Assembly (NCBI GenBank): GCA_041744535.1
Contig: JBGTKR010000491.1
Location: 1-51,523, forward strand
DNA from: Pyrinomonadaceae bacterium
Lineage (GTDB): Bacteria; Acidobacteriota; Blastocatellia; Pyrinomonadales; Pyrinomonadaceae
DNA: 51,523 nt
Reading direction: 5' to 3'
Part shown: one piece after another, positions 2,716-50,417 of the stretch
How positions within the stretch are numbered: position 1 is the stretch's first letter
Layout of the letters: each line of letters starts with the position of its first letter
The notes under the pieces: generated by a model
Databases searched by the model: none
What the model saw: the letters and a program-made list of their open reading frames with translations, nothing else
What the model was told of the DNA's origin: nothing
Position numbers and translations under genes: made by a program

Positions 2716-2745
2716 AACATTTGTCGAAGAAGGTAACCACAAGAA

Positions 2746-8142: not shown

Positions 8143-8212
8143 TTCTGCTTTCCTTTTCTGCCAAACTTTTCTCTTGATTTTTGTTAATTCTCTATAATCG
8201 ATTTTGACTTGA

Positions 8213-16768: not shown

Positions 16769-17334
16769 GCCCCATTTTCTGCAACGCATCCGATCACGCA
16801 TTTCTTTAGGCTGCGGCGGATCCGTGAGGCTTTGACCTGGAAGGCAGTTTCACTGATTCCCAAGTTTTTTCTCATTTGTTTCCGGTGCCGGATTTTTACA
16901 CTTTTTTCGCCCTGGTAATACTCAATTATAAATTCTCGCTGCCGCTCGGGCAGAGTTTTCATACAATCTTCCAAGCATTTGTATTCAATTTCTGAATCTG
17001 TTTCGGTATTCTGATGGTGTATGATGGACGGTTCCATTTTTTTCAGTCTTTTCTGCTTTCTGAGCCATTCGAGATAGATTTTATTTGCCACCCCATAAAA
17101 ATAAAATCCCGGCTCGCCGGTGTAGCTGTCAACGATATGCGACAATTTTAGTGCAACGCGGCTGATTGTTTCGTCCGCCAACTCCTCTGCTTCGAAACAA
17201 CCGCGACCGGCAAAAACACGAATCAACCGCTGACGGATTTTTTCGTATTTTTGCCCGGCAGTTTCCTGATCCAGGTCAAGCCATCCGAGAAGGGAGTGAA
17301 AGCTTTCCCGTGTTACTGTATCTTCTTTAACCAT
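16765..17334 (-). CDS. ECF-type sigma-70 family RNA polymerase sigma factor
   Basis: Region 2-like sequence is IRQRLIRVFAGRGCFEAEELADETISRV...YFYGVANKIYLEWLRK. Region 4 is LPERQREFII...LGISETAFQVKASRIRRSLKKC. The start is set at MVKEDTV, because the upstream 44 codons look like non-coding read-through. Confidence 0.8.
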   Translation of the reverse strand: MVKEDTVTRESFHSLLGWLDLDQETAGQKYEKIRQRLIRVFAGRGCFEAEELADETISRVALKLSHIVDSYTGEPGFYFYGVANKIYLEWLRKQKRLKKMEPSIIHHQNTETDSEIEYKCLEDCMKTLPERQREFIIEYYQGEKSVKIRHRKQMRKNLGISETAFQVKASRIRRSLKKCVIGCVAENGA

Positions 17335-17618
17335 TATCAAAACAGGCTGGTTTAAAATATAGACCCGCAGCAGCAGCGCCAAGATGCACGTAATAAAGGT
17401 AGAGCAAGACTGCGGATAAACCAATTTGCTATAATTTGCTATAGGATTAAAACCCGACTTAACCAACAGGAGATTTTACTAAAATTGGTTTAGGCAAATT
17501 TTCTTCCTCTTCAACCAACTAAATAATGTGACGCTCTTTTTTTCCGGATACCCAGTTTCAAATTATAAAAAATTTACTTGTCGCGGACGGTTTTTTGTTT
17601 AATACTGGTTAAAGGATT

Positions 17619-19028: not shown

Positions 19029-19030
19029 CT

Positions 19031-20845: not shown

Positions 20846-20904
20846 GATAGGTCTCCCAATAAAATTTAGTTAATTTATAAAAATACTCAGAATCTCTCTT
20901 CAAC

Positions 20905-22116
20905 TTATCCGACTCCGACTAATGGGAACAGGAATTTTGAAGGTTCCGAAATTGAACTATTGACATACTGCCGCATACCGAGATCAGAGACGGCATATCC
21001 CCAATTGATTAATCTTTCCTGCGTTGCCTGATCGAGCTTTTTAAGCCGGGTGTCAACTTGGGCAAGAAGAGTAGTTTTATCGAACGGGCAATCGAGCGGT
21101 GTTTCTATTTTATAATCCAGTGCCGCATCCGCGCTGATCGTCCAGTAGGTTCCTTGTCTGATTCCTGCAATAAAAGCCTCGACCGCCTGACGTTTTCTGA
21201 GGCTCCTGACCTGATTGTCGATTGTCATCAAAATCCGCACGGAATGCCTGACCCAATCTCTGTGCGGATCGGCTTCCGCGGAAAAACCTCCACCGGCATC
21301 ACTGATCAAAATCGTTTTATATCGTTTCCAGGCGGTTTCAAGCCCTAGATTGTCATACACCCCTCCGTCGGTCAGAACAACCTGCGTGCGGAATTCATCC
21401 CCCTGCAAATCGGTTCCGCTGCCGGGCGTAAAATCCGCCGGGTCCAGATCGAGTTCCATCGGCGAGAGAACCGGCGGGAAAGCGGACGAGGCAGCGACGG
21501 CGACCGCCAGATCGATCTTCGGATTTTTGACTTCGCCGACCCGGTAATCCCTCATATAAGGTTTCATAAACCGCCACAGAACGCCCGATTGGACATTCGT
21601 CGCATTGAAGACAAACCGCGGAGACTGACCCGGCACTTCGTCCACAATGTCCTGCAAAGTGCTGTCTCCAAAGAGATATTTCCGGTATGCGTCGGCAACC
21701 TTATCGCTGATGCTGCCGAACCATAACGCTCCGAGTGCGACCGAGGAGACATCAATCGTCCGGGATGCCAGGTTCTTTATCGGAGAGACGATCAGTTGCT
21801 CAAAATTTTGAGCAACTCCGTCATGAAAATCGAGTTCCTCCCACTTTAAAGCCAAAAGTCCGGCAGTGATCGAACCGCCTGAAACACTCGAAATGCGGTT
21901 TATTTTGGGAAGCCAGCCGATCTCATTGAGCCGCCAGAGAACACCGGCGTGAAAAAGCATCGCCCGGTAGCCGCCGCCCGAAAGACATAAAGCAATGCCT
22001 TCTTCCGGCTCTTTACTCACATCCGTTTCAAGATATTGCACCGGTTCCGCGGCATTTTGATCTTTTTCTTGATAAATTTCGCTTTCTTCGTTATTTTTCA
22101 TCATATTTGAGCACAT
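20905..22116 (-). CDS. Patatin-like phospholipase
   Basis: CLSGGGYRAMLFHAGV is the GGGxR oxyanion box. SSVSGGSITAG is the nucleophile elbow. LTDGGVYDNLG holds the catalytic Asp in DGG. The start may be Met5 or Met6 (22104 or 22101). Any of these starts overlaps the upstream ORF. Confidence 0.9.
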   Translation of the reverse strand: MCSNMMKNNEESEIYQEKDQNAAEPVQYLETDVSKEPEEGIALCLSGGGYRAMLFHAGVLWRLNEIGWLPKINRISSVSGGSITAGLLALKWEELDFHDGVAQNFEQLIVSPIKNLASRTIDVSSVALGALWFGSISDKVADAYRKYLFGDSTLQDIVDEVPGQSPRFVFNATNVQSGVLWRFMKPYMRDYRVGEVKNPKIDLAVAVAASSAFPPVLSPMELDLDPADFTPGSGTDLQGDEFRTQVVLTDGGVYDNLGLETAWKRYKTILISDAGGGFSAEADPHRDWVRHSVRILMTIDNQVRSLRKRQAVEAFIAGIRQGTYWTISADAALDYKIETPLDCPFDKTTLLAQVDTRLKKLDQATQERLINWGYAVSDLGMRQYVNSSISEPSKFLFPLVGVG

Positions 22117-22885
22117 CTATGTAAAGAGATTCCTCCGCCTCTTCATCCTTATCATCAGCAGTCAAGGAAAACGGTCTGATCGATTTTAGCGGTCCGACCG
22201 AAGTGCTAAACCATTTTCGTTTTATGCCGACCAGCTGAAAAAGCGGCGTAACATTTTCAGATTCGAGCATATTCAGCATCGTTCCCGATTGTTTTTTGAT
22301 TGAAAATTTCAGACCGGCATCTCCGAGTTCGACATTACCGACCTGTCCGCTGGCTTGGGCTTCGAGTTCCAATCCTGATTTTGACGATTGCGACACGATG
22401 ATATCGGCATATGGAGCTTGAACAATCGAATAAATAACCGCGTAGTTCTTTTTCCAAACATCGGTTTTATATGCTTCAAGAATTTGTTTTTCGAGTCGCG
22501 CGACATTTCTGATGCGCGGCTCGAAAGTTTTTTTGGCTTTGATAATAAAAGCTCCTTCAGAAGAAAATTCTATCCCGAGACCGGCTTTGCCTTTAGGAAT
22601 ATTGGGCATCGCGGGATTTACCTCACCGGCTAATTTGAAAGCCAGACTGACGCTTTTACTCGAAACCAGATCGATCGGCGAAGAACTGGTGTCAGGAACA
22701 ATGTCCTTGTCGGGCGAAAAACTTATTCCCAAATCGGCAAGCGTCGAAACGGGACGGAAAAAGTAATCGTCAACAACCTCGCCGACAGTGCCGATCTCGA
22801 TGCTTGAGCTAGGAAGCCAGTGAGCAAAATAAAACTTTGTTTGTCTTCTTACATTTTTGGCAAAAACTTTAGCAACAGTTCCCAT
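22091..22885 (-). CDS. Gasdermin-like (bGSDM-like) candidate pore-forming protein with acidic C-terminal tail
   Basis: The protein is 264 aa, soluble and beta-rich, with no Cys. The N-terminus reads LPSSSIEIGTVGEVVDDYFFRPVSTLADLGISF. The later segment is YAVIYSIVQAPYADIIVSQSSKSGLELEAQA...LKFSIKKQSG...TPLFQLVGIK. A tail of about 35 aa follows (...LTADDKDEEAEESLYIDVLKYDEK). It is the first gene of an operon that contains a protease. The family assignment comes from my recollection of the pattern, not from a search. Confidence 0.45.
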   Translation of the reverse strand: MGTVAKVFAKNVRRQTKFYFAHWLPSSSIEIGTVGEVVDDYFFRPVSTLADLGISFSPDKDIVPDTSSSPIDLVSSKSVSLAFKLAGEVNPAMPNIPKGKAGLGIEFSSEGAFIIKAKKTFEPRIRNVARLEKQILEAYKTDVWKKNYAVIYSIVQAPYADIIVSQSSKSGLELEAQASGQVGNVELGDAGLKFSIKKQSGTMLNMLESENVTPLFQLVGIKRKWFSTSVGPLKSIRPFSLTADDKDEEAEESLYIDVLKYDEK

Positions 22886-31931: not shown

Positions 31932-32540
31932 CTTATTCACCTTGGAAACAGCACAAACTAAACAAACTGTATCGGACATCCTCTATACACATTCAAAGAA
32001 AAGTATAGAATAAGTTTTTCCCCATTGGCTTTTTATTATGTGACGGGCATCATTGATTTCACGCTTATCTAAAACTCGAATACCCATATTTATCGTTACG
32101 TTAATCAACGCAATAAATACATTGCCAACGTTTTCTCCCATTAGTATTTATTTATCATTTAATGGAAATTATACTTAGAACTTGCCTAAGCAGACTTTCC
32201 CTTTCACACAGTCATAGCTCGAAAATATGATTTATGCAAACCAGACCACAAATTGTAAATCTTTGTACGAAAAATTAAATCTTTATTCTTCACCAAATAA
32301 TAATTTTAACCAAAGCAATCTGTCCTGCTAATAAGCTTAATAAATTTTGAAAATTCGTTATTTTCGGACTACCCCGCTAGCCCCGCTGACGGGGTATTCG
32401 CCCGAAAATTTTGCCCCAAACGGCAAAACCACGAATTTTTTAAAAACAAGAAGTTACCCCCTACAGGGTGAATAAGGAAACCCACGCTGCAAAAAGACGG
32501 GGAATTCTTTTAGATTAAAATTTATAATTTAAGAACCGTT

Positions 32541-34965: not shown

Positions 34966-36285
34966 GAGCCTGTAAAACAGATTGTGTAACTGCCCGTTTT
35001 ACAAATGCGGAGCCAGTTGCTCCTCGAACTCAATGGCGAAGCGGTTCATCGCCTGTTTCCAGTTTTTGATCGGCATCGTCCATTTCTTAGATGCTGCCTG
35101 GGTCGCCAAAAAGACCAGCTTCAATGCCGATTCGTCATTCGGGAATATTTTTCTCTTTTTCGTCGCTTTTCTGATCACGGAATTTAATGACTCGATCGCA
35201 TTGGTCGTATAAATAGCTTTACGAATTTCCTCAGGATAGTCAAAGATCGTGATCAGATTTGCCCAATGGGCGTTCCACGATTTGGCGATATTCGGATATT
35301 TTTCATCCCATTTTTCGGCAAATCGCTCCAGTTCAATCCGCGCCTCTTCTTCCGAAGCCGACTTGTAAATGCTTTTCAGATCGGCAGTTACCGCCTTGTA
35401 ATCCTTCCAACTGACATATCTCAGAGAATTTCTCACCATATGAATGATGCACAATTGAACTTTTGCATTCGGATATTCGACCTCGATCGCTTCGGGAAAA
35501 CCGCTCAAGCCGTCAACACACGCGATCAGAATCTGCTCGAGTCCACGATTCTTTAGTTCGGTCAGAATCGAGAGCCAGAATTTTGCGCCTTCCGTTTCCG
35601 AAATCCACATTCCCAAAAGTTCTTTCTGTCCGTCTAAATTAACCCCCAGTGCCAGATAAACAGACTTTTTGATCACCCGTTTATCCTGCCGAATCTTCAA
35701 AACGATGCAGTCCAGATAAACGATCGGATAAACCTCGTCGAGCGGTCGGTGCTGCCACTCTCTGACCTGTTCGATTACAGCATTCGTCACCTGTGAAACA
35801 AGTCCGGCAGAGACATTTGCGCCATACATCTCTTCAAATGCTTCGACAATCTCGCGCGTCGAAAGTCCTTTGGCATACAGACACAGAATCTGCTCATCCA
35901 TCCCGGTAATCCGGGTTTGTCCTTTTTTAATGATCTCCGGTTCAAAGCTGCCTAACCGATCACGCGGAGTTTCGATTCGCACTTCGCCGTGATCGCCTTT
36001 GACGATTTTCGGCGTGGTGCCGTTACGGCTGTTTCCCGTATGATGCCCTGCCGGAGAATACGGCGGATAACCGAGATGATTTTCCATCTCGGCTCTCATG
36101 GCAGCTTCGACGGTCAGTTTGACTAATTTGGCTGATAAAGAACTCAAATCCTCGCCTGTTTTAATATCCTTAGCCAGCTCGCCGGCTAATTGCTTCAATT
36201 TCTCTTCTTGTGTCTTGTTCATTTATTTACCTCTCTTTTTAGATTAATTTTTAATGAACAGTTACACAATCTGTTTTACAGGCTC
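34966..36285 (-). mobile_element. Complete IS256-family insertion sequence (1320 bp)
   Basis: The 27-bp IRs are perfect: gagcctgtaaaacagattgtgtaactg (34966-34992) and cagttacacaatctgttttacaggctc (36259-36285). The transposase ORF is intact, and 8-bp direct repeats flank the element. Confidence 0.95.
34999..36222 (-). CDS. IS256-family transposase
   Basis: The ORF is an uninterrupted 407 aa. It contains ...EAAMRAEMENHLGY..., ...VYLDCIVLKIRQD..., ...ACVDGLSGFPEAI..., ...CIIHMVRNSL... and ...TTNAIESLNS..., the typical mutator/IS256 blocks. Confidence 0.95.
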   Translation of the reverse strand: MNKTQEEKLKQLAGELAKDIKTGEDLSSLSAKLVKLTVEAAMRAEMENHLGYPPYSPAGHHTGNSRNGTTPKIVKGDHGEVRIETPRDRLGSFEPEIIKKGQTRITGMDEQILCLYAKGLSTREIVEAFEEMYGANVSAGLVSQVTNAVIEQVREWQHRPLDEVYPIVYLDCIVLKIRQDKRVIKKSVYLALGVNLDGQKELLGMWISETEGAKFWLSILTELKNRGLEQILIACVDGLSGFPEAIEVEYPNAKVQLCIIHMVRNSLRYVSWKDYKAVTADLKSIYKSASEEEARIELERFAEKWDEKYPNIAKSWNAHWANLITIFDYPEEIRKAIYTTNAIESLNSVIRKATKKRKIFPNDESALKLVFLATQAASKKWTMPIKNWKQAMNRFAIEFEEQLAPHL

Positions 36286-36293
36286 CTTTTGAT
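36286..36293. repeat. Right copy of the 8-bp target-site duplication of the IS256 insertion
   Basis: cttttgat follows the right IR directly. Confidence 0.85.
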
Positions 36294-36355
36294 ATTTTTT
36301 GATGAAACCAAACGCAACCAACTTCTAAGCGAGGTAGTGTCCTAATAATGTGTTG

Positions 36356-36541
36356 CTACTTATTTTTGGTGTCACTTATTCTTGCTCTTAGGCTATTTGC
36401 AAGATGTGAGCGAATATAGCTTGCAAATTGGTGTCGTTCTTCTGAATCACCTTGCATTTCAGTTGCTGTATGTAGAATTGCATCTATTTCTTCGTGTATT
36501 ATTTGTCTGATTTCTTCTTTATCTTCATTACTAAGTGCCAT
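36356..36541 (-). CDS. Small acidic hypothetical protein inside the IS1-family element
   Basis: This 61-aa ORF lies downstream of the transposase. Its TAG stop is formed by the last 3 nt of the left IR (36356-36358). Confidence 0.35.
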   Translation of the reverse strand: MALSNEDKEEIRQIIHEEIDAILHTATEMQGDSEERHQFASYIRSHLANSLRARISDTKNK

Positions 36542-36564
36542 TGTTTTTCCTCTTTGTTTATTAT

Positions 36565-37536
36565 TTAGTGATCGCTATATTGCGTTAATTTATCGTATAA
36601 ATCTTCAATTTCCCAAACTGACTTTGTGATGTCAGCCGCCATCGCCGGAGTGCATCTTAAAGTTTTGTGAACTCGGCAATAATTATAATAAGCGAAATGC
36701 AGAGCAATGGCATAACCTAAGTTTTCAAACTTTTTAGAAAAGCCGTTTGTAAGGCGCGTCATTCTACGCATTGACATTCTCATTGTAAGATTTTGTCTTT
36801 CAACATAGCTTGTCGAAATTGAATCCAAGTTCGGATTTCCGGCAACAATTCTTTTTTTGATTTCAATAACTTCACTTCCTGAATATCTCACTTGTTCGGG
36901 ATTCGGTTGACCGTAAATCTTTATAACTTGTCCGTAGTCAGCTTGCGGCAAAACTTCGTTTACCGTGTGATCGTAGCCGCGCCAACCGTCTGTGGACATT
37001 TGAAAACGACCGTTTGTGTCTTTCGAGATTTCATAAATTTTTTCTAGGAAAATAAGCGCGTCTTGTTCGGTGCGTTTGCCGAGATGCCAAGCAACAATCA
37101 TTTTGGAATTGCCTTCAATACTCGTAAAAGTGTAAGTGCTTCCGACTTTATCGTTTTCATCCAAACCTTGCTTATTTGCCGTTTTTTGCTTCATTCCGAC
37201 AAACGCCCAAATTTCGTCAGCTTCCAGATTATTGATCGGCATACCTTGAACCAAATCATAATGCAGTTTTTCGCATTTCTTACCGACTTTTTCGAGAAGT
37301 CTTAAAATAGTATCGCGGTGAACATTTGCGATTCGTTCGGTTGAACGGATTGAATTGCCCTCAACTAATAATTTCAAACAAAGAATTGCTTTATCTCTCT
37401 CAAGGCGCATTTCATCAAGCGGTTTGTCGAGTTTTTCAATGTAAGTTTTTCCGCATTCCTTACACATAAATCTTTGGTTGCCATCTCTATCTTTTCCGTT
37501 TTTCTTTGGTAAGCCGTTGCAATATGGACAATTCAT
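36565..37536 (-). CDS. IS1-family transposase (fused single ORF with N-terminal zinc finger)
   Basis: MNCPYCNG...FMCKECGKTY is the zinc ribbon. The HTH is STERIANVHRDTILRLL. The DDE core begins LEADEIWAFVGMKQK. RVHKTL lies near the C-terminus. Confidence 0.8.
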   Translation of the reverse strand: MNCPYCNGLPKKNGKDRDGNQRFMCKECGKTYIEKLDKPLDEMRLERDKAILCLKLLVEGNSIRSTERIANVHRDTILRLLEKVGKKCEKLHYDLVQGMPINNLEADEIWAFVGMKQKTANKQGLDENDKVGSTYTFTSIEGNSKMIVAWHLGKRTEQDALIFLEKIYEISKDTNGRFQMSTDGWRGYDHTVNEVLPQADYGQVIKIYGQPNPEQVRYSGSEVIEIKKRIVAGNPNLDSISTSYVERQNLTMRMSMRRMTRLTNGFSKKFENLGYAIALHFAYYNYCRVHKTLRCTPAMAADITKSVWEIEDLYDKLTQYSDH

Positions 37537-39788: not shown

Positions 39789-40049
39789 TTACTCTTTTTC
39801 TCTATTCCAACGCACTTTTGCGGCTTTCTTAGCAATCGCGCTTCGTTCTTCGGCGGTCAAGGCTTCGGCGCGAGCCTTACCGCCTTTTTTGCCGCCTAAA
39901 CGACCTAATGCGACCGCCGCCGGATTCTTTTTCGGCGGCTCTTTGTCGAAATCTTCGCTTTCGGTTTCTTCGATAATGTCATCAATGAGATTTTTTGCTA
40001 AAATATTCTCATCTTTGCTTCGTTTATTTTTGCTTGAGCGGTTTTGCAT
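39789..40049 (-). CDS. Small basic protein with a KGG/ARW C-terminal motif (passenger gene)
   Basis: NPAAVALGRLGGKKGGKARAEALTAEERSAIAKKAAKVRW is a widespread small-protein motif often seen in mobile DNA. Its function is unknown. Confidence 0.55.
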   Translation of the reverse strand: MQNRSSKNKRSKDENILAKNLIDDIIEETESEDFDKEPPKKNPAAVALGRLGGKKGGKARAEALTAEERSAIAKKAAKVRWNREKE

Positions 40050-40125
40050 AATCGTAAGATTATCACAAGTAAAAATGCGTTGCCAGAACTTATTTTGCCT
40101 AGCAACACATTATTAGGACACTACC

Positions 40126-40927
40126 AGGTGAAGAAATCAAAGCCAAACTTACCGAAAAGGCTAATGAACTAACTCCGTTCTATTTAGAGAAACTTAAAAT
40201 ATTTGAAATCGTTAAACAATTGCAGGAAAAAGGCTTGACCATCAATCAAATCAGAATGCAAATAAGTCGGCATCATACGACTGTTGCCAGATGCTACCGG
40301 GCAGAAGAATTTGAAAAGACCAAACGCGAAACGGGGAGCCGATTATTGAAACCGTTTATCGAATATCTCAAAAAGCGTTGGGAAGAAGGCTGTCAAAATT
40401 CTAAACAGCTTTGTCGCGAAATCAAACTGCAGGGTTACAAAGGAAGCGATGTGACAGTGCGACGATTGACTTGTCAATGGAAAACTACAACTACTCAAAA
40501 CATTAGATTCATTAGAACGGCGCCGCCTAAATTGCCGTCCGTTAAACAAATCGTCTGGCTGTTGTTGAAATCAGAAGATAAGTTAAAGGATGAAGAAAAG
40601 GAGTTCAAACAAAAAATTATTGAGAATTCGGATGAAATCAGACAAGGGCTGACATTATTAAACAAATTCCGAACGATGGTCAGAGAAAAACAGGTTGATA
40701 AATACGAACAATGGCATCAAGAAGTCCAAAATAGATCGCTGACGGAATTTTTGAATTTTGCCAGAGGTTTGAGACGGGATAACGAAGCAGTTAAAAATGC
40801 CTTATCTGAAGAATGGAGTAACGGACAGGTCGAAGGTCAAGTGAACCGCTTGAAATTTATCAAACGAGCAATGTATGGGCGAGCAAACTTTGACCTCCTA
40901 AAAGCCAGAGTTATCCATCAATTCTAG
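40126..40927 (+). pseudogene. ISL3-family transposase, C-terminal ~265 codons only
   Basis: The open frame begins directly at the IS1-element IR. It contains LLKPFIEYLKKRWEEGCQNSKQLCREIKLQGYKGSDVTVRR. It ends with EEWSNGQVEGQVNRLKFIKRAMYGRANFDLLKARVIH, the conserved ISL3 C-terminus. The N-terminal zinc finger and DDE start are missing from the window. Confidence 0.75.
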
Positions 40928-41096
40928 GCTCACAAAACTTGAGAATTTCTCAAATTGAAAAAGGTAAAGGTCTGTGTAAAATCAGCCGTTTGCACCAAAA
41001 TTGCGGATCAACCGTTCGCGCGTAATCGGTGTTCATCTTCGCACGTAATATGCAAAATATTGGCTAAATCGTAATTTTTATATATAATCCGGTTCA

Positions 41097-41771
41097 TTAT
41101 TTAACTTGTATTGCCCGCATTGTTTTTTTTCCAATTCTTCTAAATTTATAGATTCGGTCAAATAATCCTAGAAATAGCGATGGTAAATGTGATTTCGGGC
41201 TGTTCCACTCCAAATTCAAAAATACATCTACATTATGTCTCTTTGAAAAATTATCGGCATACATTGCATAATCACTTAGCCAAGAAATTTTGTTTATATT
41301 CCCAAACTCATCAAAATTGGGGTATTCATCTTCGTATTCTTCATACTCAATATCTAACTCGTTATTACGCATAATCATTTGTTCGATATATTTTTTATAT
41401 CTTTCTTTATATCCATCTGAATTTTGATTGTTAAATTTTTCAACCAATTCACTTGTCACGCCCTTCACAAATACGATATCGCCGCCGAAAAAGATTTTTT
41501 TGCCTAACGTTTGATAGAAAATTTCCCTCGGTATTTCAAGGAAAGCTTCCGATGATTCTGACCAGAAAACGTTTGCATCTTCGTCAATATTCAATAAGCT
41601 TCGATATTTTATAGTTTCGGGACACAACCACCTTATCCCGTGCTGTAAAGAATATTTGTAAATTGTTTCATTTAGAAACGAACCTGCAAGCTCTTCAGAA
41701 CCTAAAATCAGGCTCGAGCTTCCTCCTAAAAATTCCACATTAGGGATGTATTTAGTGTTTATCTCTACCAT
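41097..41771 (-). CDS. Hypothetical protein downstream of NurA, AT-rich
   Basis: This 224-aa ORF starts 81 nt after the NurA-like stop on the same strand. It has an acidic Tyr/Glu-rich segment (DIEYEEYEDEYPNFDEF). I recognised no motif. Confidence 0.5.
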   Translation of the reverse strand: MVEINTKYIPNVEFLGGSSSLILGSEELAGSFLNETIYKYSLQHGIRWLCPETIKYRSLLNIDEDANVFWSESSEAFLEIPREIFYQTLGKKIFFGGDIVFVKGVTSELVEKFNNQNSDGYKERYKKYIEQMIMRNNELDIEYEEYEDEYPNFDEFGNINKISWLSDYAMYADNFSKRHNVDVFLNLEWNSPKSHLPSLFLGLFDRIYKFRRIGKKTMRAIQVK

Positions 41772-41852
41772 ATCGTTAGATTGCCTCCGCCAATAAATTT
41801 TGCTACTAAAAATTGATTGTTAAATTTCCTTAGAATGAAAGTTAGAAATATC

Positions 41853-43244
41853 TTATGCGAGTGCCATAATATCCCTTGAAAGACTTTCCAAAACGCGCCG
41901 CCCAAGCTTTGCCGGAATAGCAGCCTCGCCATGCGCCAAAGTTATTGGGATTAAAGCGTTCGAATAGCGCGAAGAGCCAAGCGCATCGAACAAATTCAAA
42001 GCATCGGCAAGACGAGGAAATTGTTCAGGCAAAGCCACATTCAAGTTTCGATCTTCGGGTTTCAGAAACGGAAGCGTAGCGATTATTTGCGAGCCTGTTT
42101 TAGTCCGGTAGAACAGTTTCCGCGAGAAATAATTGACATCTCCATGCGGTCGCTTATCCTTGCTAAGCACAATAAATTTGCGGATATATTCATTGGTTAA
42201 TAAAATTGCTGTTTGCGCAGGAACTTTGATGCTTCCGCGATTAACATCATAATCAGCGCAAAGCCGGTAAAAGTGATCGGCAAACGCGCCGCTCTTTTCA
42301 ATTCCGATGATTAATAAATCTTTTCCCGTTCGTTTTTTTAACTTTTCATTAATTCGCGATAATTCGCGTGATATAGATTTGCTAAGCCATCCGGGTCGCC
42401 CAAAAACAGCCAGCGGTCCATCTAAAACAATCGCCATATTTGCTAGAACTTCGAGCATATTCTGCTGTTCCAAAGACCTGATAATATGCATTAACCATAA
42501 GCGCTCGGTAACATGAATGATTTCGCCAAACGCGGTTCCATTGTCACCTGCCGAATTGAATCGTTCGTAAAGCCGCATGGCATCAGTTGAATGGTAAGGT
42601 AGCTTTAGGGGGCAACTGCAAAATTCGGTGCCTGAAATACGCGAACAAGCTGTGCGCGGCGATTCGTGCGCGCACAAATCGCCATACGGGCAACTTTCGG
42701 GCGGCACTAATGGTTTATTCGTCAGTAGTGCTTCGTAAGTGTCCAGTAAGCTTTCGCCATCTTCGAAAGCCCGCTGTTCGCGGAAAAGATCGATTACACC
42801 TCTTCGAAAACTGCTCTGGGCATCGATCTCGCCTTCGAAAATCACGTTACATCCAGCCAGCACTGTATCGGTTGCGCCGCTCGATTGGGTTTTCCGAATT
42901 TCTCGCGGATCCGCAGGGCGTACAGCATCGAGCTCCTGCAATTTTTTCAACTGCAGCAGCACATCGGTGATCGTCGTATAAGCAATTTTTGCCGATACTG
43001 ATTCATTCGAAACCGGAACTTCAACAAAACTTCCATCGATTGACAATACGAAATCCGGCAGCGCAACAGCTTTGCTTTTTCTAATAATGTCGGTTTTAAG
43101 TACCGATGTATAAATTTCTTCTTTAGTGTCTTCAATAGTTTCAGGAACAGTTAATCTATAATTTTTCAAAATTTCTTTAATGCGATTATTTTCCGATATT
43201 CGTTTTATTGAATTGTATTGTGCGAATTCGCCCTGGTATGGCAT
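41853..43244 (-). CDS. nurA: NurA-domain nuclease with a Cys-rich insert
   Basis: NurA motifs are FVLSIDGSFVEV (the DGS motif), MAIVLDGPLAVFG and IIGIEKSGAF. The insert is CPYGDLCAHESPRTACSRISGTEFCSCP. The gene starts 60 nt after the HerA stop. Confidence 0.7.
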   Translation of the reverse strand: MPYQGEFAQYNSIKRISENNRIKEILKNYRLTVPETIEDTKEEIYTSVLKTDIIRKSKAVALPDFVLSIDGSFVEVPVSNESVSAKIAYTTITDVLLQLKKLQELDAVRPADPREIRKTQSSGATDTVLAGCNVIFEGEIDAQSSFRRGVIDLFREQRAFEDGESLLDTYEALLTNKPLVPPESCPYGDLCAHESPRTACSRISGTEFCSCPLKLPYHSTDAMRLYERFNSAGDNGTAFGEIIHVTERLWLMHIIRSLEQQNMLEVLANMAIVLDGPLAVFGRPGWLSKSISRELSRINEKLKKRTGKDLLIIGIEKSGAFADHFYRLCADYDVNRGSIKVPAQTAILLTNEYIRKFIVLSKDKRPHGDVNYFSRKLFYRTKTGSQIIATLPFLKPEDRNLNVALPEQFPRLADALNLFDALGSSRYSNALIPITLAHGEAAIPAKLGRRVLESLSRDIMALA

Positions 43245-43304
43245 AAAACTTCTCCTTTTTATTAATAAATGTTTGAATTAAGAAAATGATTGTTCGTTAA
43301 TTCG

Positions 43305-45401
43305 TTACACCTCAAAACGTTTAATTTGAACAGGCATCACAAACAAATTGCTCAAGGTTTTAATGCGCAAAAAGCCTTTATCCTGAGCCCGGCGAATTGA
43401 TCCTTCGAAATCTGCGAAATCATAGTATTTGCACAGTTCCCGCGTTTCATCCGTATTATTTAAATGTGCCACGAAAAAATTCGCCGTATTCTTCAAAATG
43501 TTCTTCTGGATGCTGGATACTTCCTGGGTGGCATATACTAACCCAATCCGGTATTTACCGCCTTCTTTAGCGGTTCTAACCCATATATTTTGCAGATTCG
43601 TTTCGCCTCCGGAAGGCAAAATGGTGTGCGCCTCTTCTAAATAGATAAGAATTTCCGCCGGCTGCAGTCCGTTGCGAAAAGATTCCTGGTTCAAGCGAAA
43701 AATTCGCTCCATCAGCCTGGTGGCATTGGCACAATTAATTTCTTCATCGCCCGATGATTGATCGACAATTACCAATCTGCCGGCAGTCAAATCTTTATAA
43801 ATTGCTTCTGCGTAATCACCCGATAATTCAGGTGTATGCTGCGGCACAAGCTTTCCGATTTGGCGTGATCCATTAGGAAAACGAAACATTTCTAAAATCT
43901 TTTTTAAAGTATCATCTGCCCAAGCATCGCCCGATGAACTTTTTGTAATATAGGCAGCTTCAAATACGGCATATCCACTGGTGCGGTCGTAGATAAAGTC
44001 ATACAAATACTCTAATGCCTGCGCCAGTTTATCCCAGCTTAATGCGCTATCTGCTAGAAGGCGGGCGGCTTGTTGATGATCGACGGCGCGCACTCCTGCG
44101 CTTGCTTCTAATGCTGCGATTAGTTCTTTACCAAATAACCCTTTAATTATGGGTTTTAAAGCAGCAGGCGGTTGGAAATCAGCTTTTTTCAATAGTGCGC
44201 GATAAGACAAAACGTGGCGTTTATATCTTGTTATAGCGGAGAAGTTAGCCGGGTCAGGCTCTTCGAAAGTTACCTGCTGGAAATTCCGGATGAATTTTGA
44301 AGTATCCCCCTCAAGGGCATTATCAATGATGGTTTTTCCAACCTGAAGATTTTCCTGGGCATAAAAATTCAAAAGCATTAGCTTACGCCCAGGGTCTTTT
44401 GGATGGGTAGTCAACCCGTAAGTCACTACATCTTCGGCTTTGGCAGCGGGATGTGAATCGCGCAAATTTTTAATCGCGGCTGCTACACGTGCGCCGCTTG
44501 CGTCCTGCGTATTTTCGTTGGCATATTCGCCGTTGGCATCGAAAATCAATTGTCCTATTTTCTTTTGTTTTCCACCTCTGACAATAGGTGTGTATCGCAT
44601 TTCATGTACGGCTTTTACAATAATTTTTGTAGTATTCGATTTGCCGGATCGAGTAATACCGAATAAAGCAGTTTTCTGCGCAAGGAGATCTTCGGGCAAG
44701 ATCTCAAAACTAACATTAGCCATATTTTGAAAATCACGGTCGGTCGAAGCATATCGCACGTATCCAACCGGAACACTCGAATTTTTTATAAAAGTCGACT
44801 TTGCACTTTCCCGGAAATTTACAATCTTTTGAAGTGCGCTGGCATTTGGTTTATATACTTTTAGCCCTCGGTTCGGATAAAAATTCGGAATATCGCAGCC
44901 AAATCGAAGCTCCAATTTTTCGCCTTTCTCCGGTTCGCTTTTAGCCAGGTAGAAAGTTCCCAGCACGCGACATCGAACCCCGGCGAAGCTTAGTAAATTC
45001 GCTGTAACCGCATCCATAGCTCCGGTATCATCCCAATTCAAATCAAATTCACCGTTGACGCGCTGTCCAATTTCAACGCGAATTCGCTCGGCTTCCTGGT
45101 TATTCGGAAGTGCCGCAGAATCGAGCACCCGGAGCAGAATTAAATTTGAATCTTCTTGATTAAAATCAATTTCTTTTTCAGTATTGATCCGGGTAGCAAG
45201 AAGCAGGCACATTCCCGGTATCCCCCCGACTTTCTGGCGAAAACTATCGTGAATTTGCACCAATGCCGAATCATAATTCAGCGAATACACATCGCCTATC
45301 AGTTGTTCGGGCTGAATAAATTCACGAAAAATACGTGATCCTTCTTTTCTTACCGTTTCTTCTTTATCGGCTGCTAATGCAGTTGCTAAGTGCGATTTCA
45401 T
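43305..45401 (-). CDS. herA: HerA/DUF87-family hexameric ATPase
   Basis: The N-terminal HAS-barrel-like segment is [18 protein letters not shown]. Walker A is [23 protein letters not shown] is present. Walker B is [22 protein letters not shown] lies near the C-terminus. Confidence 0.8.
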
Positions 45402-45514
45402 ATAACCTTTCTTCTCCTTGATAATTTATTGAATTAATTCTTTTCGCTGCTGCTATATTTATTTGTGTACTTCCTGATAAATAAAATTTTAACCAGATTT
45501 TGTCGGAAAATTTT

Positions 45515-45910
45515 TCAGCATATTTTTGCCTTCCATGCGTTTCCAACGCGCCAGAATGTAAATTTGCCGTGGAAAAATAAAAACTGGTTTTCTTTGATTG
45601 CTAGGTTCAATTCAGGCATGAAGAAATCTTGTAAATACTGCACTTTTGCTGTCCAAGTACAGCAGAACTTACTGGTTCCGATTTTTACTTTAGAAAGAAT
45701 TCGAAATGTAACGAGTCTTAAAAATTCTTTGTTTGTTCCGCCCATCAAAGCGAACCGGCGATTGAATAGTTCACTTATAGCCTGCTCGTTTGGCTCTTCA
45801 ATTTCCCAGGAAAGGGTGGTTTGCACAGGAAATAGATCAACATCTGGAATTCGAATTAATAAAGTATTTGTTTTCAATTCACCGGGATGAATATTTTGTG
45901 TAACTTTCAT
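45515..45910 (-). CDS. Hypothetical protein, first gene of the HerA/NurA cluster
   Basis: This 131-aa ORF lies 113 nt upstream of herA on the same strand. It is divergent from the XRE regulator. I recognised no motif. Confidence 0.5.
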   Translation of the reverse strand: MKVTQNIHPGELKTNTLLIRIPDVDLFPVQTTLSWEIEEPNEQAISELFNRRFALMGGTNKEFLRLVTFRILSKVKIGTSKFCCTWTAKVQYLQDFFMPELNLAIKENQFLFFHGKFTFWRVGNAWKAKIC

Positions 45911-45973
45911 ATAATTTTCCTCAATATTCTTTTCAAAATTTTTGAACTAACATTTTTTCAGCCTTCGGATGAC

Positions 45974-45999
45974 ACAGTAGGACTAAATAGTCCTACTGT
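45974..45999. promoter_or_regulatory. Perfect 11-4-11 palindrome in the divergent promoter region; candidate XRE operator
   Basis: The sequence is acagtaggact aaat agtcctactgt. It lies between the divergent starts at 45910 and 46061. Confidence 0.55.
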
Positions 46000-46060
46000 C
46001 AAATCACAATTTTTATATTATTTAATTTTTTGAGAAGATTATTTGGGGAGCAGAAAAGAA

Positions 46061-46315
46061 ATGGGTAGAAAATCTCGCTTGAGGGTAAATAATTTACCCG
46101 GAAAACTGCAGCAAATAAGGGATCGGCTTAATTTATCTCAAGCCGGAATGCTTCAATTATTAAACTTTGAAGAATTAAATGATAGAAGCGTTATTTCTGC
46201 ATATGAAAGAGGAGAACGCGAGCCACCCATACCCGTTGTGCTAAAGTATGCTCGACTTGCGGAAATTAATGTTGAATTTTTAATTGATGATAAGTTAGAT
46301 TTGCCTGAAAATTAA
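46061..46315 (+). CDS. XRE-family HTH transcriptional regulator
   Basis: LQQIRDRLNLSQAGMLQLL...SVISAYERGEREPPIPVVLKYARLAEINVEFLIDD is an HTH_3 domain. I prefer the ATG at 46061 over the TTG at 46043. Confidence 0.8.
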   Translation: MGRKSRLRVNNLPGKLQQIRDRLNLSQAGMLQLLNFEELNDRSVISAYERGEREPPIPVVLKYARLAEINVEFLIDDKLDLPEN

Positions 46316-46699
46316 TTATGTCAAAAGAAGTTTTTTCCTACTGTACTTTTGCCAATGCAGTTTCAAAAGTAAATGGCGGCTTGATATTAGTTAGTGTCGG
46401 TATTGTCTGTTCGTTTATTTTTTCTCCTTTTTCAAAACTTGGAAAGAGTAAATCCAGCTAGGTTTGCCCTTTCCAATTCGCCAAGCCATTAGATATTCGC
46501 CGAACGGCTTTTAAGTGGAAATTCGATTGCCGGAAAATTAATTTTCGTCTGCGCGATTTCCTTAAAATAGTTGGTGAAAATATTGAGCGCGACATTAGCG
46601 ACCATTTCTCCAACTTCACCATTGGGAAATCCGGCTTCTTTGCTTACCTGCAAATCCACTTCTTTTCATTGGCTTGTTTAAACATTTCTTGAAAATGAT

Positions 46700-47094
46700 C
46701 ATTCTTGGTTTTGCCATCCGAATCAGAATTGTAATTCCGATAATTTACCGGATAAAACTCTCCCATCGCTCCATATCGTATGCACCAAATTGACCAGACT
46801 GATGTCTTTTACCAAGCCTTCGACATTGCCGCTATATTGCAACTTCACCGTTTCAATAAATCGTGAATACTGCTTGTTTTGGACTGAATCATCCACCTAC
46901 AAAAAGGCTTCTTCACTATCATCAATGCGATTTTTGACTAATTCCCACAACTCTTTGGGCGTGAACTTGGAATTTTGCAAAAAATTCGTCACAGAATCGT
47001 GGTTAATATTCTCAAAACGCTCCGCTAAATTGGAACAAATGTAATTTATTGGCGTATTTAACAGATATTCGATATATCGATTTTTAGTTATCAT
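46700..47094 (-). pseudogene. Degraded DDE transposase (IS4/IS701-like superfamily) N-terminal part
   Basis: The reading is YIEYLLNTPINYICSNLAERFENINHDSVTNFLQNSKFTPKELWELVKNRIDDSEEAFL, then an in-frame TAG, then VDDSVQNKQYSRFIETVKLQYSGNVEGLVKDISLVNLVH. Further downstream the frame collapses into multiple stops. Confidence 0.65.
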
Positions 47095-47143
47095 CAGAAC
47101 ATCTGTTTAATCATATTTTTTCCAAAAGCGAAAGTTCTATTTA

Positions 47144-47602
47144 CTAAACATTTTTTTGAATTGTGTCTGCTTCCTTCTGTAACTTGTCAGTTGTTTCCGA
47201 AAGAATTTTTAGAAGCAAATCAAATTTTTCCTCGCCAATAGTTTTAACTACTATCTGGGATATTCTTTCCAGCTCATTGATATACATTTCGTGAATTTGT
47301 TGCCATTTTGGTGTTACTTCAACCATAACGATCCGGCGGTCATTAAAATTTTCGTAACGAGAAACCATTTCTTTTTTTTGCAGCCTTAGTATTATGCCAG
47401 TCATTATATTGGGTTTGACTTCTATAAATTCTGAAAGTTCTTTCATAGACGCGGCACCAAATTTTGCCAAATACTCAAAAGTATTCATTTCTTCGCTGCT
47501 TAAATTTTCTTCGAAAGCAGGCATTCTTAAATAGTTGGTCAAGTTAATTAATTTACAGGATTCGTTATCTAAATCTATAAATTTTTTAGAATAGTTTTTC
47601 AT
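47144..47602 (-). CDS. MarR-family transcriptional regulator
   Basis: FEYLAKFGAASMKELSEFIEVKPNIMTGIILRLQKKEMVSRYENFNDRRIVMVEVT is the wHTH followed by the DRR wing motif. Confidence 0.8.
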   Translation of the reverse strand: MKNYSKKFIDLDNESCKLINLTNYLRMPAFEENLSSEEMNTFEYLAKFGAASMKELSEFIEVKPNIMTGIILRLQKKEMVSRYENFNDRRIVMVEVTPKWQQIHEMYINELERISQIVVKTIGEEKFDLLLKILSETTDKLQKEADTIQKNV

Positions 47603-47867
47603 AATGTTATTTCAAGTAGTGAATATTTCATGTTCTGAAATAATTTTATCATTAAATCTTAAAATTTTAACCTAAAGTTACTAAAAAATAATCCCGCAAC
47701 TACTGTCCTATCTGTATTTATATCATTATTAGTTATTGTCTTTTAATTAATGCTAAGCTGTGAGTTTTGCATTCAAATTCACACCCACCTGCATATTTAT
47801 ATGAAGCTAATTTCATTATAAGTTTTGGTTTTTGCGAAAAATTTACATTTTCGATTAAATTGCGGTT

Positions 47868-48977
47868 ATGACAACGCAACGCATAAATGAGCCAAATGAC
47901 GCTCAATCGCAATTGTCACAAGAAACTTCCGCTCAGGCAGAGGTCTCTACGGTTAATAAAATTAAGCAGGCTGATCAAGTTAACGAGGCAGCCAATGTAG
48001 AATCTTTAAATGCAGAAAGCAATATATCATCTGCGCAGTCCGAAACAAACGCGGGCAATATTATTTCAAATACAACTAATTTAAAAGCAAATACTGCCGT
48101 TAGCAGTAACAAAATTTCAAATATTATTTCCGAAGATTCAAATCTTCAAAAACAAATCAGCGACCAATCGAATGCAGTTTGCGAGAAAAAACAACACGAG
48201 CAGGTCAAAAAGTTTACCCGAAGCGTCCCGCAATTTTATTCAATAGAAGCGCGGTGGCTTTACGAGTGCGGCGAAGATAAGTATTACGATCTCGCTATCG
48301 AAACAATCAAAAATACCCAGAAAAATGTGAATGCCGGAAAAATATTAATTGCTCTGGCGGCACACGCAGTATGGAGCAGAACGCCTGCCGAAAAAGGCGG
48401 AAGAGGAAACAAGGTCGCGCCGGGAGAAGGGCGAAAGAATGTCCTTGATAAATTTTCGGCAGATTGCCTTTCAAAAGGGATAAAAATCAGCCCCGCGACA
48501 CTCCACGATTATGTTGGTCGTATTCAGAAGTTAGTCGAAGACCCCCTCAAGCAGTTCGAGGGAAAAAGCAAAGAATTTATCACTCAGGAGCGAGCCAAAT
48601 CAATCGACAATCTGTTTTTGGTTCCGATGGGTTTCCTTAAGATAGCATCGCAAACAACAAAACCGGCAGAAGCACTGGCAATCGCTTGTGAGAAAAAGGC
48701 GAACGAAGCAGAAGCACTGGCAATCGCTTGTGAGAAAAAGGCGAATAAAGATACCAAATTTACGGAGAATCAATACAAGGAAGCGATTAGCCATTTAATA
48801 AAGAAAGCCGTTGATACAAAAGACGATAAGGCATCGAGTTTCGACAATATTGTAATTTTGCAACTAAAGGTCGTAGCAGGGCGAGCTAACGTAAGTTTCG
48901 AGCAAGTAGTAGAAATTTATATTTCCATTCTGCAGTTGCAACTTTCAATTTTCAAAGATATGGGGGTTAAAGAATAA
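47868..48977 (+). CDS. Hypothetical protein with a low-complexity N-terminus and an internal 14-aa tandem duplication
   Basis: This is a 369-aa ORF with a Ser/Asn/Gln-rich first ~100 aa. Its stop lies 3 nt before the methyltransferase start. Confidence 0.6.
   Translation: MTTQRINEPNDAQSQLSQETSAQAEVSTVNKIKQADQVNEAANVESLNAESNISSAQSETNAGNIISNTTNLKANTAVSSNKISNIISEDSNLQKQISDQSNAVCEKKQHEQVKKFTRSVPQFYSIEARWLYECGEDKYYDLAIETIKNTQKNVNAGKILIALAAHAVWSRTPAEKGGRGNKVAPGEGRKNVLDKFSADCLSKGIKISPATLHDYVGRIQKLVEDPLKQFEGKSKEFITQERAKSIDNLFLVPMGFLKIASQTTKPAEALAIACEKKANEAEALAIACEKKANKDTKFTENQYKEAISHLIKKAVDTKDDKASSFDNIVILQLKVVAGRANVSFEQVVEIYISILQLQLSIFKDMGVKE
48666..48749 (+). repeat. Two tandem 42-bp units inside the 369-aa ORF
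   Basis: gcagaagcactggcaatcgcttgtgagaaaaaggcgaa occurs at 48666 and again at 48708. The units differ only in their last 4 nt and encode AEALAIACEKKANE / AEALAIACEKKANK. Confidence 0.9.
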
Positions 48978-48979
48978 TT

Positions 48980-50041
48980 ATGAATTCAATTAATACAAAT
49001 AACGTTTTAGATGACTTTTTAGAATTTGAACAGACTAATTCGGCGCAGAAAAATTCAAGCGGGCTTTCAATAAAGAAAGCCCAGATTCACCTGCCGCCTT
49101 GGACGAATAAAGTTAAACAATTGCTTCCGCCTTTTACTTACTTTGGTGGAAAACGAAAGGCGGCACTCGAAGTTTGGCGGCGATTCGGTGAAGATCTTGA
49201 AAACACCATTGACCCTTTCTCAGGCAGTTTATCGTTTCATTTAGCACGTCCGGTTTATGATATGAGAAAACTGCAGAGTTACCGGGAATTAGCAAATGAT
49301 TCGAATTTGTTTTTAATCAACTTTTGGAGAACAGTGCAACATAAGAAAAACGTCAGAAAACTCATAAAATTGATGGACTTTCCCGCTCACGAATTTGAAC
49401 TGCTGACGCGGCGCGAGGAAATGATGCAACGAGCCGTAGATTTACAGAATAAGCTGCGCCATCCTAACGGTCACGATGCAAAGCTTGCTGCCTACTGGCT
49501 TTATATTCAACGCCAGTGGATCGGTCAGGGTGCTGATGATATTTCGTTTTCTCCAACACTGAAAATGGTTCGCGCTCTCGAAAGCGGAACAATGACCGGT
49601 TCATTGAAAGATGATCTAAATTTATTAAAGGCAAGAACGCGCCACATGCGGTTTTTCCAAGGCGATTGGCAGCGCGCGCTGATTAGCCGAACACAAACGA
49701 TTAGTATCGGGACCACGGGTGCTTTCCTTGATCCGCCATACATTGATACCACCAATATTTACAAGGGGCGGCTTGATATGAATGATCCCTTGAATGCAGT
49801 ACCGCTTGCCGCTCGCGCCTGGGCACTTAAATTCGGGCAATACAAGCAATTCCGCATCGGTTATTGCGGTTATTTTCACCACCACGATGAATTTTTTCCG
49901 CGAGGCAAAAATGGCTGGATCAGATACCACTGGCAGTTTAAAAACGGTATGTCCAAACCCGTTGAAGGCGAGGAAAGAGAAATCGACACGATTTGGTTTT
50001 CGCCCCACTGTCTTAGATTTGACGATGACTCTCAAGATTAA
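48980..50041 (+). CDS. Dam-type (D12 class) N6-adenine DNA methyltransferase; no restriction partner seen
   Basis: The N-terminal motif is PFTYFGGKRKAALEVW...IDPFSGSLSF. The catalytic motif is GAFLDPPYID. Confidence 0.75.
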   Translation: MNSINTNNVLDDFLEFEQTNSAQKNSSGLSIKKAQIHLPPWTNKVKQLLPPFTYFGGKRKAALEVWRRFGEDLENTIDPFSGSLSFHLARPVYDMRKLQSYRELANDSNLFLINFWRTVQHKKNVRKLIKLMDFPAHEFELLTRREEMMQRAVDLQNKLRHPNGHDAKLAAYWLYIQRQWIGQGADDISFSPTLKMVRALESGTMTGSLKDDLNLLKARTRHMRFFQGDWQRALISRTQTISIGTTGAFLDPPYIDTTNIYKGRLDMNDPLNAVPLAARAWALKFGQYKQFRIGYCGYFHHHDEFFPRGKNGWIRYHWQFKNGMSKPVEGEEREIDTIWFSPHCLRFDDDSQD

Positions 50042-50056
50042 TCTTTAAAAAATAAA

Positions 50057-50080
50057 GAAAGTCGCTTTAAAGCGGCTTTC
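50057..50080 (+). terminator. Hairpin after the methyltransferase gene
   Basis: The stem is gaaagtcgct / agcggctttc (one G-U pair) with loop ttaa. A weak T-rich tail follows. Confidence 0.45.
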
Positions 50081-50386
50081 TGTTCCTTATAGTTTTATAC
50101 CGCTTCAAGAAACGGTAGTAAAATTTATTTCCATGAAGAAAAATATTCGCTAGCGCTACTCACCAAAACCTACGGCTCGCAAGGCAAATAAAAAAAGCCG
50201 TCATCGATCAATTTGCTACCGGTATAACTTAATTCAGGGACAAATACGAGTTATACAAACAAACTAACCGCAACTTTGCTGATTACGATTTCAATCCTTT
50301 AAGAATTTACCCAATTGTTCGTCCTTGGACTAAAGCCGCCAACAGAAATGCTTCATTAAGGCGAAATAAGTAATGGTTAATTTAAT

Positions 50387-50417
50387 GGAAACTATTCGTT
50401 CAAAACGAATAGTTTCC
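50387..50417. other. Perfect 12-bp-stem hairpin in non-coding DNA
   Basis: The sequence is ggaaactattcg ttcaaaa cgaatagtttcc. It lies about 100 nt downstream of the minus-strand ORF ending at 50516. Confidence 0.4.

Follow-up and report, generated by a model that had tools for sequence, protein, structure and literature searches.

A mobile HerA-NurA and methyltransferase cassette in a Pyrinomonadaceae bacterium, probably a restriction-modification-like system

A HerA-type ATPase and a NurA-like nuclease are encoded side by side in a 51,523-nucleotide stretch of DNA from a Pyrinomonadaceae bacterium (contig JBGTKR010000491.1, assembly GCA_041744535.1; hereafter the window). The locus raises the question of whether such a pair serves DNA repair or defence, and with which partners it works. 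We believe that the cassette carrying the pair is probably a restriction-modification (R-M)-like system, in which the HerA-NurA motor-nuclease would act as the restriction enzyme. This reading was adopted because herA and nurA are always paired, because they are linked to methyltransferases, and because the nearest solved relatives of their products are TdpA and TdpB. A D12-class adenine methyltransferase of the same cassette is put forward, rather tentatively, as the cognate protective methylase; we hold this part less firmly because three intact loci of the window's subclade are without the module that encodes it. A role in defence rather than repair appears well supported by the genomic context.

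Comparison with related loci (given here as L numbers) showed a conserved eight-gene cassette at 41097-50044 (Table 1). One half consists of an XRE regulator divergent from orf131-herA-nurA-orf224, and the other of a MarR regulator divergent from orf369 and the D12 adenine methyltransferase gene. The initial annotation had set the limits of the block at 41097-46315, which is about half of the unit, and missed the methyltransferase module (47144-50041) of the same cassette. The four minus-strand open reading frames (ORFs) that it described and the divergent XRE gene were all present. In L001, a 5.3-Mb contig whose NurA is 83% identical, the four minus-strand genes and XRE are accompanied by counterparts of the window's MarR, orf369 and D12 genes, the second of these being a hypothetical ORF of about 400 amino acids (aa). 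The eight-gene arrangement was seen again in L083 (NurA 77%) and L085 (NurA 60%), with unrelated flanks.

The DNA homology between the window and L001 spans 41119-50044 and ceases at either end. Its sole gap is 46306-47195, the site of a transposase remnant. Because the homology breaks only there, the remnant is an insertion within the spacer between XRE and MarR. This spacer measures 828 bp in the window but is shorter in L001 (508 bp) and L083 (185 bp), and in L085 XRE and MarR overlap. By tblastn, this remnant matched annotated transposases on 240 plasmids (1e-29). Transposase debris had been described on both sides of the block. Both remnants are present and the ISL3 one does flank the cassette, covering only positions 109-240 of the 240-position DDE_Tnp_ISL3 Pfam profile (4e-16; the last half of the DDE domain), but the other lies within the cassette. 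All cassette genes are full length compared with their homologues. The cassette is intact and horizontally mobile. The earlier proposal of a mobile, regulator-controlled module rather than housekeeping repair is supported by comparative context, namely by patchy distribution, plasmid copies, methyltransferase linkage, a candidate operator and homology that ends at the cassette edges. A megablast search of 40000-47700 against plasmids gave no match, an Rfam scan of the whole window gave none, and a tRNA scan found no tRNA. The guanine-plus-cytosine (GC) content of herA (43.5%) and nurA (44.5%) is higher than that of orf224, orf131, XRE and MarR (32-37%). The contrast noted at the outset is therefore real, but it is weak evidence, as the window ranges from 29 to 51% (mean 40.6%) and the herA and nurA values fall inside this range.

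Table 1. Features of the cassette and its borders, in window coordinates.
Feature	Position	Strand	Description
ISL3 transposase remnant	40220-40927	+	Internally deleted; flanks cassette, outside system
orf224	41097-41771	-	Variable accessory gene 3' of nurA; fast-evolving
nurA-like nuclease	41853-43244	-	463 aa; predicted RNase H-like fold with four-Cys insert (homologue search and AlphaFold2 fold)
herA	43305-45401	-	698 aa; predicted HerA-type hexameric translocase ATPase; Pfam DUF87 8e-8
orf131	45515-45910	-	First gene of nuclease operon; small protein; subclade-specific
Candidate XRE operator	45974-45999	.	Perfect 12+12 palindrome ACAGTAGGACTA-aa-TAGTCCTACTGT in XRE-operon intergenic region
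XRE-family helix-turn-helix (HTH) regulator	46043-46315	+	HTH_3 1.8e-6; divergent from nuclease operon
Transposase N-terminal remnant	46723-47094	-	In-frame stop; between XRE and MarR, inside cassette
MarR-family regulator	47144-47602	-	Pfam MarR 1.9e-9; divergent from orf369-methyltransferase operon
orf369	47868-48977	+	Methyltransferase partner; ends 2 bp before methyltransferase start
D12-class (Dam-like) N6-adenine DNA methyltransferase	48980-50041	+	FGGKR and DPPY motifs; Pfam MethyltransfD12 1.4e-8
Terminator-like hairpin	50056-50081	+	At cassette end

The translation of herA contains GITRSGKS (Walker A), FDANGEY and ILIYLEEAH (Walker B region), in agreement with the Walker A and YLEEAH motifs described for it earlier. 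The protein scored 33 bits against Pfam HerA/DUF87 (PF01935), above the gathering score of 23.2. Its best sequence match in the PDB was TdpA (8wet, 4e-15), confined to the C-terminal 135 aa. The NCBIfam models of repair HerA gave 32-35 bits against cut-offs of 800-970, and NF042943 (HerA_antiphage) gave 36 bits against a cut-off of 800. PADLOC HerA models matched the protein in part only (best 1.8e-17). By analogy, HerA would form a hexamer that translocates double-stranded DNA.

The nuclease of the window scored 15.9 bits (E = 0.0096) against Pfam NurA (PF09376), below the cut-off of 21, and the same profile matched 26 of 27 aligned family members (best 7e-16). The homologue family comprises more than 560 proteins, most of which carry PF09376; the product name given to these homologues by NCBI is 'DNA double-strand break repair nuclease NurA'. 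Searches of the PDB with the single sequence and with a profile found no match, and a fold search was required. The AlphaFold2 model (predicted local distance difference test (pLDDT) 83.5, predicted template modelling score (pTM) 0.84) was compared with the PDB by Foldseek. The top match was TdpB as solved in the TdpAB-DNA complex (8wfd_G; 5e-8, TM 0.56), and the next were NurA of D. radiodurans, P. furiosus (two entries) and S. solfataricus, the top five spanning 5e-8 to 1e-4. The model thus predicts an RNase H-like NurA fold and, together with the PF09376 matches of the homologues, speaks for placing the window protein with NurA. D70 (IDGS), E164, D275 (LDGPL) and E316 (IEKSG) are invariant in the 27 homologues, as are the insert cysteines C185, C191, C209 and C211; the three motifs and the Cys-rich insert had all been pointed out earlier. 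The four-Cys insert looks like a zinc-binding knuckle. The catalytic residues of S. solfataricus NurA are D58, E116 and D133. D58 sits in a DGS motif, as does D70 of the window, and this is the only residue paired between the two proteins.

To what else are such pairs linked? A NurA alignment was used to scan one genome per species in 185,579 species. The scan gave 143 relatives, and the best 80 were taken for locus analysis. The family occurs in approximately 0.1% of species and is patchily distributed over more than ten bacterial phyla; the groups are Cyanobacteria, Acidobacteriota, Chloroflexota, Latescibacterota, Armatimonadota, Planctomycetota, Actinomycetota, Proteobacteria, Bacillota, Patescibacteria and others. 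A herA gene (product of about 700 aa) lies immediately 5' of nurA in all 82 of 82 loci, with a spacing typically of -4 to +3 bp. Clustering of the neighbours showed a protein of about 373 aa encoded directly 3' of nurA in 74 of the 80 GTDB loci; in most cases the two genes overlap by 4 bp. This third-gene product is a PF01555 DNA methylase. Its motifs DPFxGR (S-adenosylmethionine-binding) and TSPPY (catalytic) are at least 95% conserved, and their order is permuted compared with the classic beta class, motif I preceding motif IV by about 200 residues. The archaeon Halorarius halobius also carries the herA-nurA-methylase trio, on a plasmid. A broad trait of R-M systems, nuclease genes linked to a methyltransferase with intact catalytic motifs, was thus seen in these canonical loci and in the window with its D12 DPPY motif.

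The survey found no fourth conserved gene: the 121 nearest flanking proteins fell into 162 Pfam families, each in at most three loci. The family is nearly absent from viral contigs, where one distant NurA relative (26% identity) was found. On the Nostoc cf. commune plasmid pANSO36C (L096, 3625-8433), a more distant operon of HTH, DUF87 and NurA genes (NurA 25%) is followed by a gene for a 352-aa hypothetical protein where a methylase would be expected, none being annotated; further HerA-NurA variants exist on cyanobacterial plasmids.

In the neighbour-joining tree of HerA, the window forms one clade with L001, L002, L083, L099, L003, L084, L085, L098 and L086. This ten-member subclade nests among methylase-bearing lineages, and its sister is the methylase-bearing Pyrinomonadaceae pair L004 and L005. 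The window's subclade has lost the operonic methylase, of which no remnant is detectable in the window. XRE and herA-nurA are the only invariant core of the subclade, the divergent XRE gene being present in all intact loci. In L005 (5571-10653), a homologue of the subclade XRE lies directly 3' of a canonical herA-nurA-methylase operon, an arrangement that may be intermediate between the canonical and subclade architectures.

The D12 enzyme of the window further matched TIGR00571 dam (3.6e-5) and a PHROG DNA methyltransferase (2e-11). Its module was found with XRE-herA-nurA in six of the nine informative subclade loci (the window, L001, L083, L085, L098 and L099). These six loci have differing flanks and NurA identities as low as 60%. 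A metagenome search that started from the methyltransferase gave four loci, of which the two of sufficient length hold XRE, herA and nurA, spaced from the methyltransferase as expected. In every case orf369 is 5' of the D12 gene. In the alignment of orf369 the centre is conserved, and the low-complexity N-terminus varies. At 48666-48745 of the window, 42 bp of the gene are repeated in tandem, perfectly and in frame (1.9 copies), by which the peptide AEALAIACEKKANE is doubled. A metagenome scan with the orf369 alignment gave no confirmed locus. Pfam, PHROG and NCBIfam gave no match for orf369, orf131 or orf224.

The start codon of the XRE gene is likely the ATG at 46061, and its product weakly matched R-M control proteins in PADLOC. 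A TTGACA hexamer on the strand of the operon directly adjoins the intergenic palindrome. The core of the palindrome, TAGGAC-N6-GTCCTA beside TTGACA, is kept in L001, L002, L083 and L003, where a change in one arm is compensated in the other; the L084-L086 versions are degenerate. These features make the palindrome a credible candidate operator for a dimeric HTH repressor. The MarR gene is syntenic in L001, L083 and L085. No palindrome was found in the MarR-orf369 intergenic region. A second XRE paralogue was observed a few kb from the cassette in L001 (13940-14281), L002 (7351-7647), L083 (18941-19234) and L099 (6144-6389).

The small ORFs had been expected to be conserved alongside the nuclease genes. 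This is the case for orf131 within the subclade, where it lies 5' of herA in 8 of the 10 loci (26-85% identity, with invariant residues). It is absent from L003, L098 and the wider family, and only 16 orf131-like proteins were found among 5.8 billion. Its AlphaFold2 model reached a pLDDT of 79.5, and comparison of this model with the PDB and with viral structures yielded just non-significant NTF2-like matches. In L003, a close relative without orf131, a perfect hairpin with 23-bp arms (7608-7656) stands between XRE and herA.

For orf224 the expectation did not hold, as unrelated genes take its place at other loci and a relative occurs away from any HerA-NurA pair. Homologues are located 3' of nurA in L001, L002, L083, L098 and L092-94, with 45% identity where NurA identity is 81%. 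Nine representative clusters were found among 1.84 billion proteins. The ORFs downstream of nurA in L084-L086 showed no similarity to orf224, and those in L085 and L003 are members of one further family, unrelated to orf224. The possibility that orf224 is a decayed ancestral methylase was rejected, since tblastn with 76 canonical methylases found nothing significant in the window. The C-terminal 70 residues of orf224 have a relative in L091 (52-4746), encoded between a tyrosine integrase/DUF6262 pair and a C5 cytosine methylase, in an element with neither herA nor nurA. We believe that orf131 and the variable gene after nurA may modulate or re-target the complex.

The initial annotation had proposed NurA, paired with HerA, as a nuclease effector of defence. 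The Tdp system is a precedent, and TdpAB is the closest solved relative. Tdp is a phosphorothioate-based R-M system of thermophiles, in which tdpC alone makes the modification. TdpAB was reportedly found by An et al. in 2025 to translocate along and degrade unmodified DNA, and phosphorothioate on self DNA is said to inhibit it. As in TdpABC, the window combines a HerA-type hexameric ATPase (TdpA) and a NurA-fold nuclease (TdpB), as a putative restriction module, with a DNA-modifying enzyme. The similarity is remote, TdpA being the best PDB match of HerA by sequence and TdpB that of NurA by fold, the latter pair being alike in fold only (12% identity). Unlike in Tdp, the window HerA and NurA are each about 100 aa longer, NurA has the four-Cys insert, and the modification gene encodes a base methyltransferase (PF01555 in canonical loci, D12 in the window) instead of the phosphorothioate-forming TdpC. 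A phosphorothioate link was rejected, as neither dnd nor tdpC genes occur among the scanned window ORFs or in the related loci.

The second comparison is with the integrative element ICEth1 of Thermus thermophilus HB27, one operon of which encodes Tth111II, the NurA-like TTC1878, the HerA-like TdtA and the PF01555 methylase TTC1880 (PMC5365140). DNA donation ('transjugation') depends on both the nuclease and the HerA-like ATPase of this operon (PMC5365140). A NurA nuclease, a HerA/FtsK-type ATPase and an N4/N6 methylase thus share one operon of a mobile element, a likeness drawn by protein family alone. In ICEth1, nurA precedes the ATPase gene, and the element also encodes an integrase and a type IIG restriction enzyme, whereas in the window the D12 methylase is in a separate operon and XRE, MarR and orf131 are added. 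No integrase was found among the scanned window ORFs, none is conserved across the family, and only L086 has an adjacent one.

The archaeal and Deinococcus HerA-NurA proteins (4d2i, 2ygk, 3tal, 7f6d) resemble those of the window in folds, gene adjacency, Walker motifs and the catalytic Asp in DGS. The window family differs from them in that it is without mre11/rad50 linkage, patchy, mobile, methyltransferase-coupled and repressor-controlled. According to a 2026 study, archaeal HerA-NurA is loaded at DNA ends and degrades both strands, and its authors argue that it may be antiviral and not a resection machine (PMC12977600). Sir2-HerA (Nezha) and DUF4297-HerA likewise join a HerA-family ATPase to an effector in a defence operon, and the PADLOC and HerA_antiphage models matched the window HerA weakly. 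The effector here is NurA, those systems are without a methyltransferase, and the HerA_antiphage score is far below its cut-off. Pfam and PADLOC found no Sir2 or DUF4297 partner at the window locus. The PADLOC run that had been suggested gave, besides the partial HerA matches, a weak match to mad8 and nothing for NurA, orf131 or orf224. A known PADLOC system or MADS was rejected, only these matches having been obtained. Type II R-M systems with a controller (C) protein also have a small XRE HTH protein, a palindromic operator at the promoter of the nuclease operon and a separately expressed methyltransferase. The difference is that the window has an ATP-driven HerA-NurA, not a PD-(D/E)XK endonuclease, and MarR on the methylase side.

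In the mechanism that we propose, which takes solved HerA-NurA and TdpAB complexes as its models, the HerA hexamer would thread double-stranded DNA using ATP and feed it into the NurA dimer (HerA6-NurA2), which would degrade unmodified DNA. A methyl mark would spare host DNA by blocking loading, translocation or cleavage. In the ancestral and commonest form, the mark would be made by the methyltransferase whose gene comes third in the herA-nurA operon. The window's subclade lost this gene; its nuclease operon was placed under an XRE repressor that would bind the palindrome of the divergent promoter, and orf131 was gained as a new first gene. In most members of the subclade, the separately regulated MarR and orf369-D12 module travels along, probably supplying the self mark. 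XRE on the nuclease side and MarR on the methylase side may order expression such that methylation precedes restriction once the cassette has reached a new cell, as type II controllers do.

Several observations weigh against the restriction reading. The methyltransferase of the window is 3.7 kb from nurA and differs in class from the ancestral one. L084, L086 and L003 are intact subclade loci without the D12 module, two of which show no recognisable methyltransferase within 7-10 kb; methylation may not be obligatory in the window's subclade. The NurA/HerA-like/PF01555 operon studied experimentally, that of ICEth1, was tied to DNA donation and not to defence. The neighbourhoods of the family are variable yet not conspicuously defence islands. 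PADLOC has no model for the system, its matches being partial for HerA and none for NurA, and the restriction function of the family is deduced from sequence, fold and gene context. The loci without the D12 module also favour a defence that is independent of modification. The nuclease would be silenced by XRE and/or held by orf131, and released on infection or DNA damage. Its target would then be whatever DNA offers accessible ends or, in an abortive-infection response, the DNA of the cell itself, and the D12 module would be a passenger (an orphan or anti-restriction methylase). The invariant core of XRE and herA-nurA, the position of the operator in the promoter region of the nuclease operon, and orf131, which is subclade-specific and arose when the operonic methylase was lost, agree with this explanation, as does the loading of archaeal HerA-NurA on DNA ends and its digestion of both strands (PMC12977600). 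We nevertheless consider it unlikely. The ancestral family is nearly always methyltransferase-coupled (74 of 80 loci), the D12 module has been kept with the nuclease module over 60-84% NurA identity and differing flanks, and orf131 is missing from L003 and L098.

The parallel with ICEth1 suggests that the genes might instead serve DNA donation or element transfer, a HerA pump exporting nuclease-processed DNA. The canonical relatives of the window genes belong to the same three protein families as those combined in the ICEth1 operon, whose nuclease and ATPase are needed for transjugation (PMC5365140). The gene order differs, nurA being first in ICEth1, no integrase, type IIG enzyme or fourth gene is conserved beside the triad, the scanned window ORFs include no integrase, and TdpA and TdpB, the nearest relatives of known structure, are restriction proteins; we regard this explanation as quite improbable. 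Housekeeping resection of double-strand-break ends is suggested by the NCBI naming of the homologues and by the fold and pairing shared with archaeal and Deinococcus HerA-NurA. A few neighbours point the same way, namely SMC_N (2/121) and Metallophos (2/121), which could be SbcCD-like, and an SMC/Rad50-like gene upstream in L087. Synteny with core repair genes, which had been named as evidence that would speak against a defence module, was not seen; there is no conserved mre11/rad50 linkage among the neighbours examined, and these vary between loci. A family found in so few species, scattered over many phyla, coupled to methyltransferases, carried on plasmids, bordered by insertion sequences (IS) and controlled by a repressor is hardly that of a housekeeping repair system, and the scores of the window HerA against the repair models are far below their cut-offs. 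Of all the explanations weighed, repair is the one we find hardest to believe.

The surroundings of the cassette contain other mobile and putative conflict genes. The region of 35-47 kb is rich in IS, because it contains a seemingly intact IS256/Mutator-family transposase (2e-119) beside an IS1-like ORF (34999-37536) and both transposase remnants. Two short non-coding stretches, 32347-32440 (89%) and 50371-50415 (83%), resemble 7951-8045 and 5457-5504 of L002, both outside the L002 cassette, and may represent a small repeated or mobile element that the two genomes have in common. The segment at 2230-9442 looks like a polymorphic-toxin locus. A minus-strand gene (2746-8142) there encodes an RHS-repeat protein of 1798 aa; a 170-aa ORF follows it closely, and the gene of an FG-GAP repeat protein precedes it. 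A minus-strand run at 13115-22885 encodes a TPR-CHAT protease-like protein (1228 aa), a small sigma-70 region 4-like ORF, a metallo-beta-lactamase-like protein, a 604-aa hypothetical protein and a patatin phospholipase, and may be a further conflict or effector cluster.

HerA-NurA is already known as a restriction effector from TdpAB, and an operon of NurA, HerA-like and methylase genes has been seen once, in ICEth1. The large family with a base methyltransferase as third gene and the derived architecture of the window appear to be undescribed. The literature searched, which did not extend to subscription papers, contained no description of a herA-nurA-methylase defence system, and neither PADLOC v2 nor NCBIfam r20 has a model or specific family for it. 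It is possible, though we would not yet wager on it, that the family is an unnamed ancient class of bacterial and archaeal R-M systems in which a ring translocase and NurA read base methylation as TdpAB reads phosphorothioate. The window would then be a derived form, in which the permuted N4/N6 methylase was swapped for a Dam-like enzyme with a new partner and a repressor switch and orf131, as a new small subunit, were added; the motor-nuclease would accordingly be re-targetable to different epigenetic marks.

If the restriction reading is true, the TdpAB principle of a HerA-NurA shredder restrained by a mark on self DNA would extend past phosphorothioate and thermophiles to base methylation, and its reach would include cyanobacteria, acidobacteria, Chloroflexota, actinomycetes and a haloarchaeal plasmid. 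Proteins now annotated as 'double-strand break repair nuclease NurA' would have to be renamed, and detection tools would gain a defence family. The finding would also be relevant to the current dispute on archaeal HerA-NurA, for which both a repair and an antiviral function are argued (PMC12977600). The window's subclade would be a natural experiment in which a modification module was swapped and transcriptional control added.

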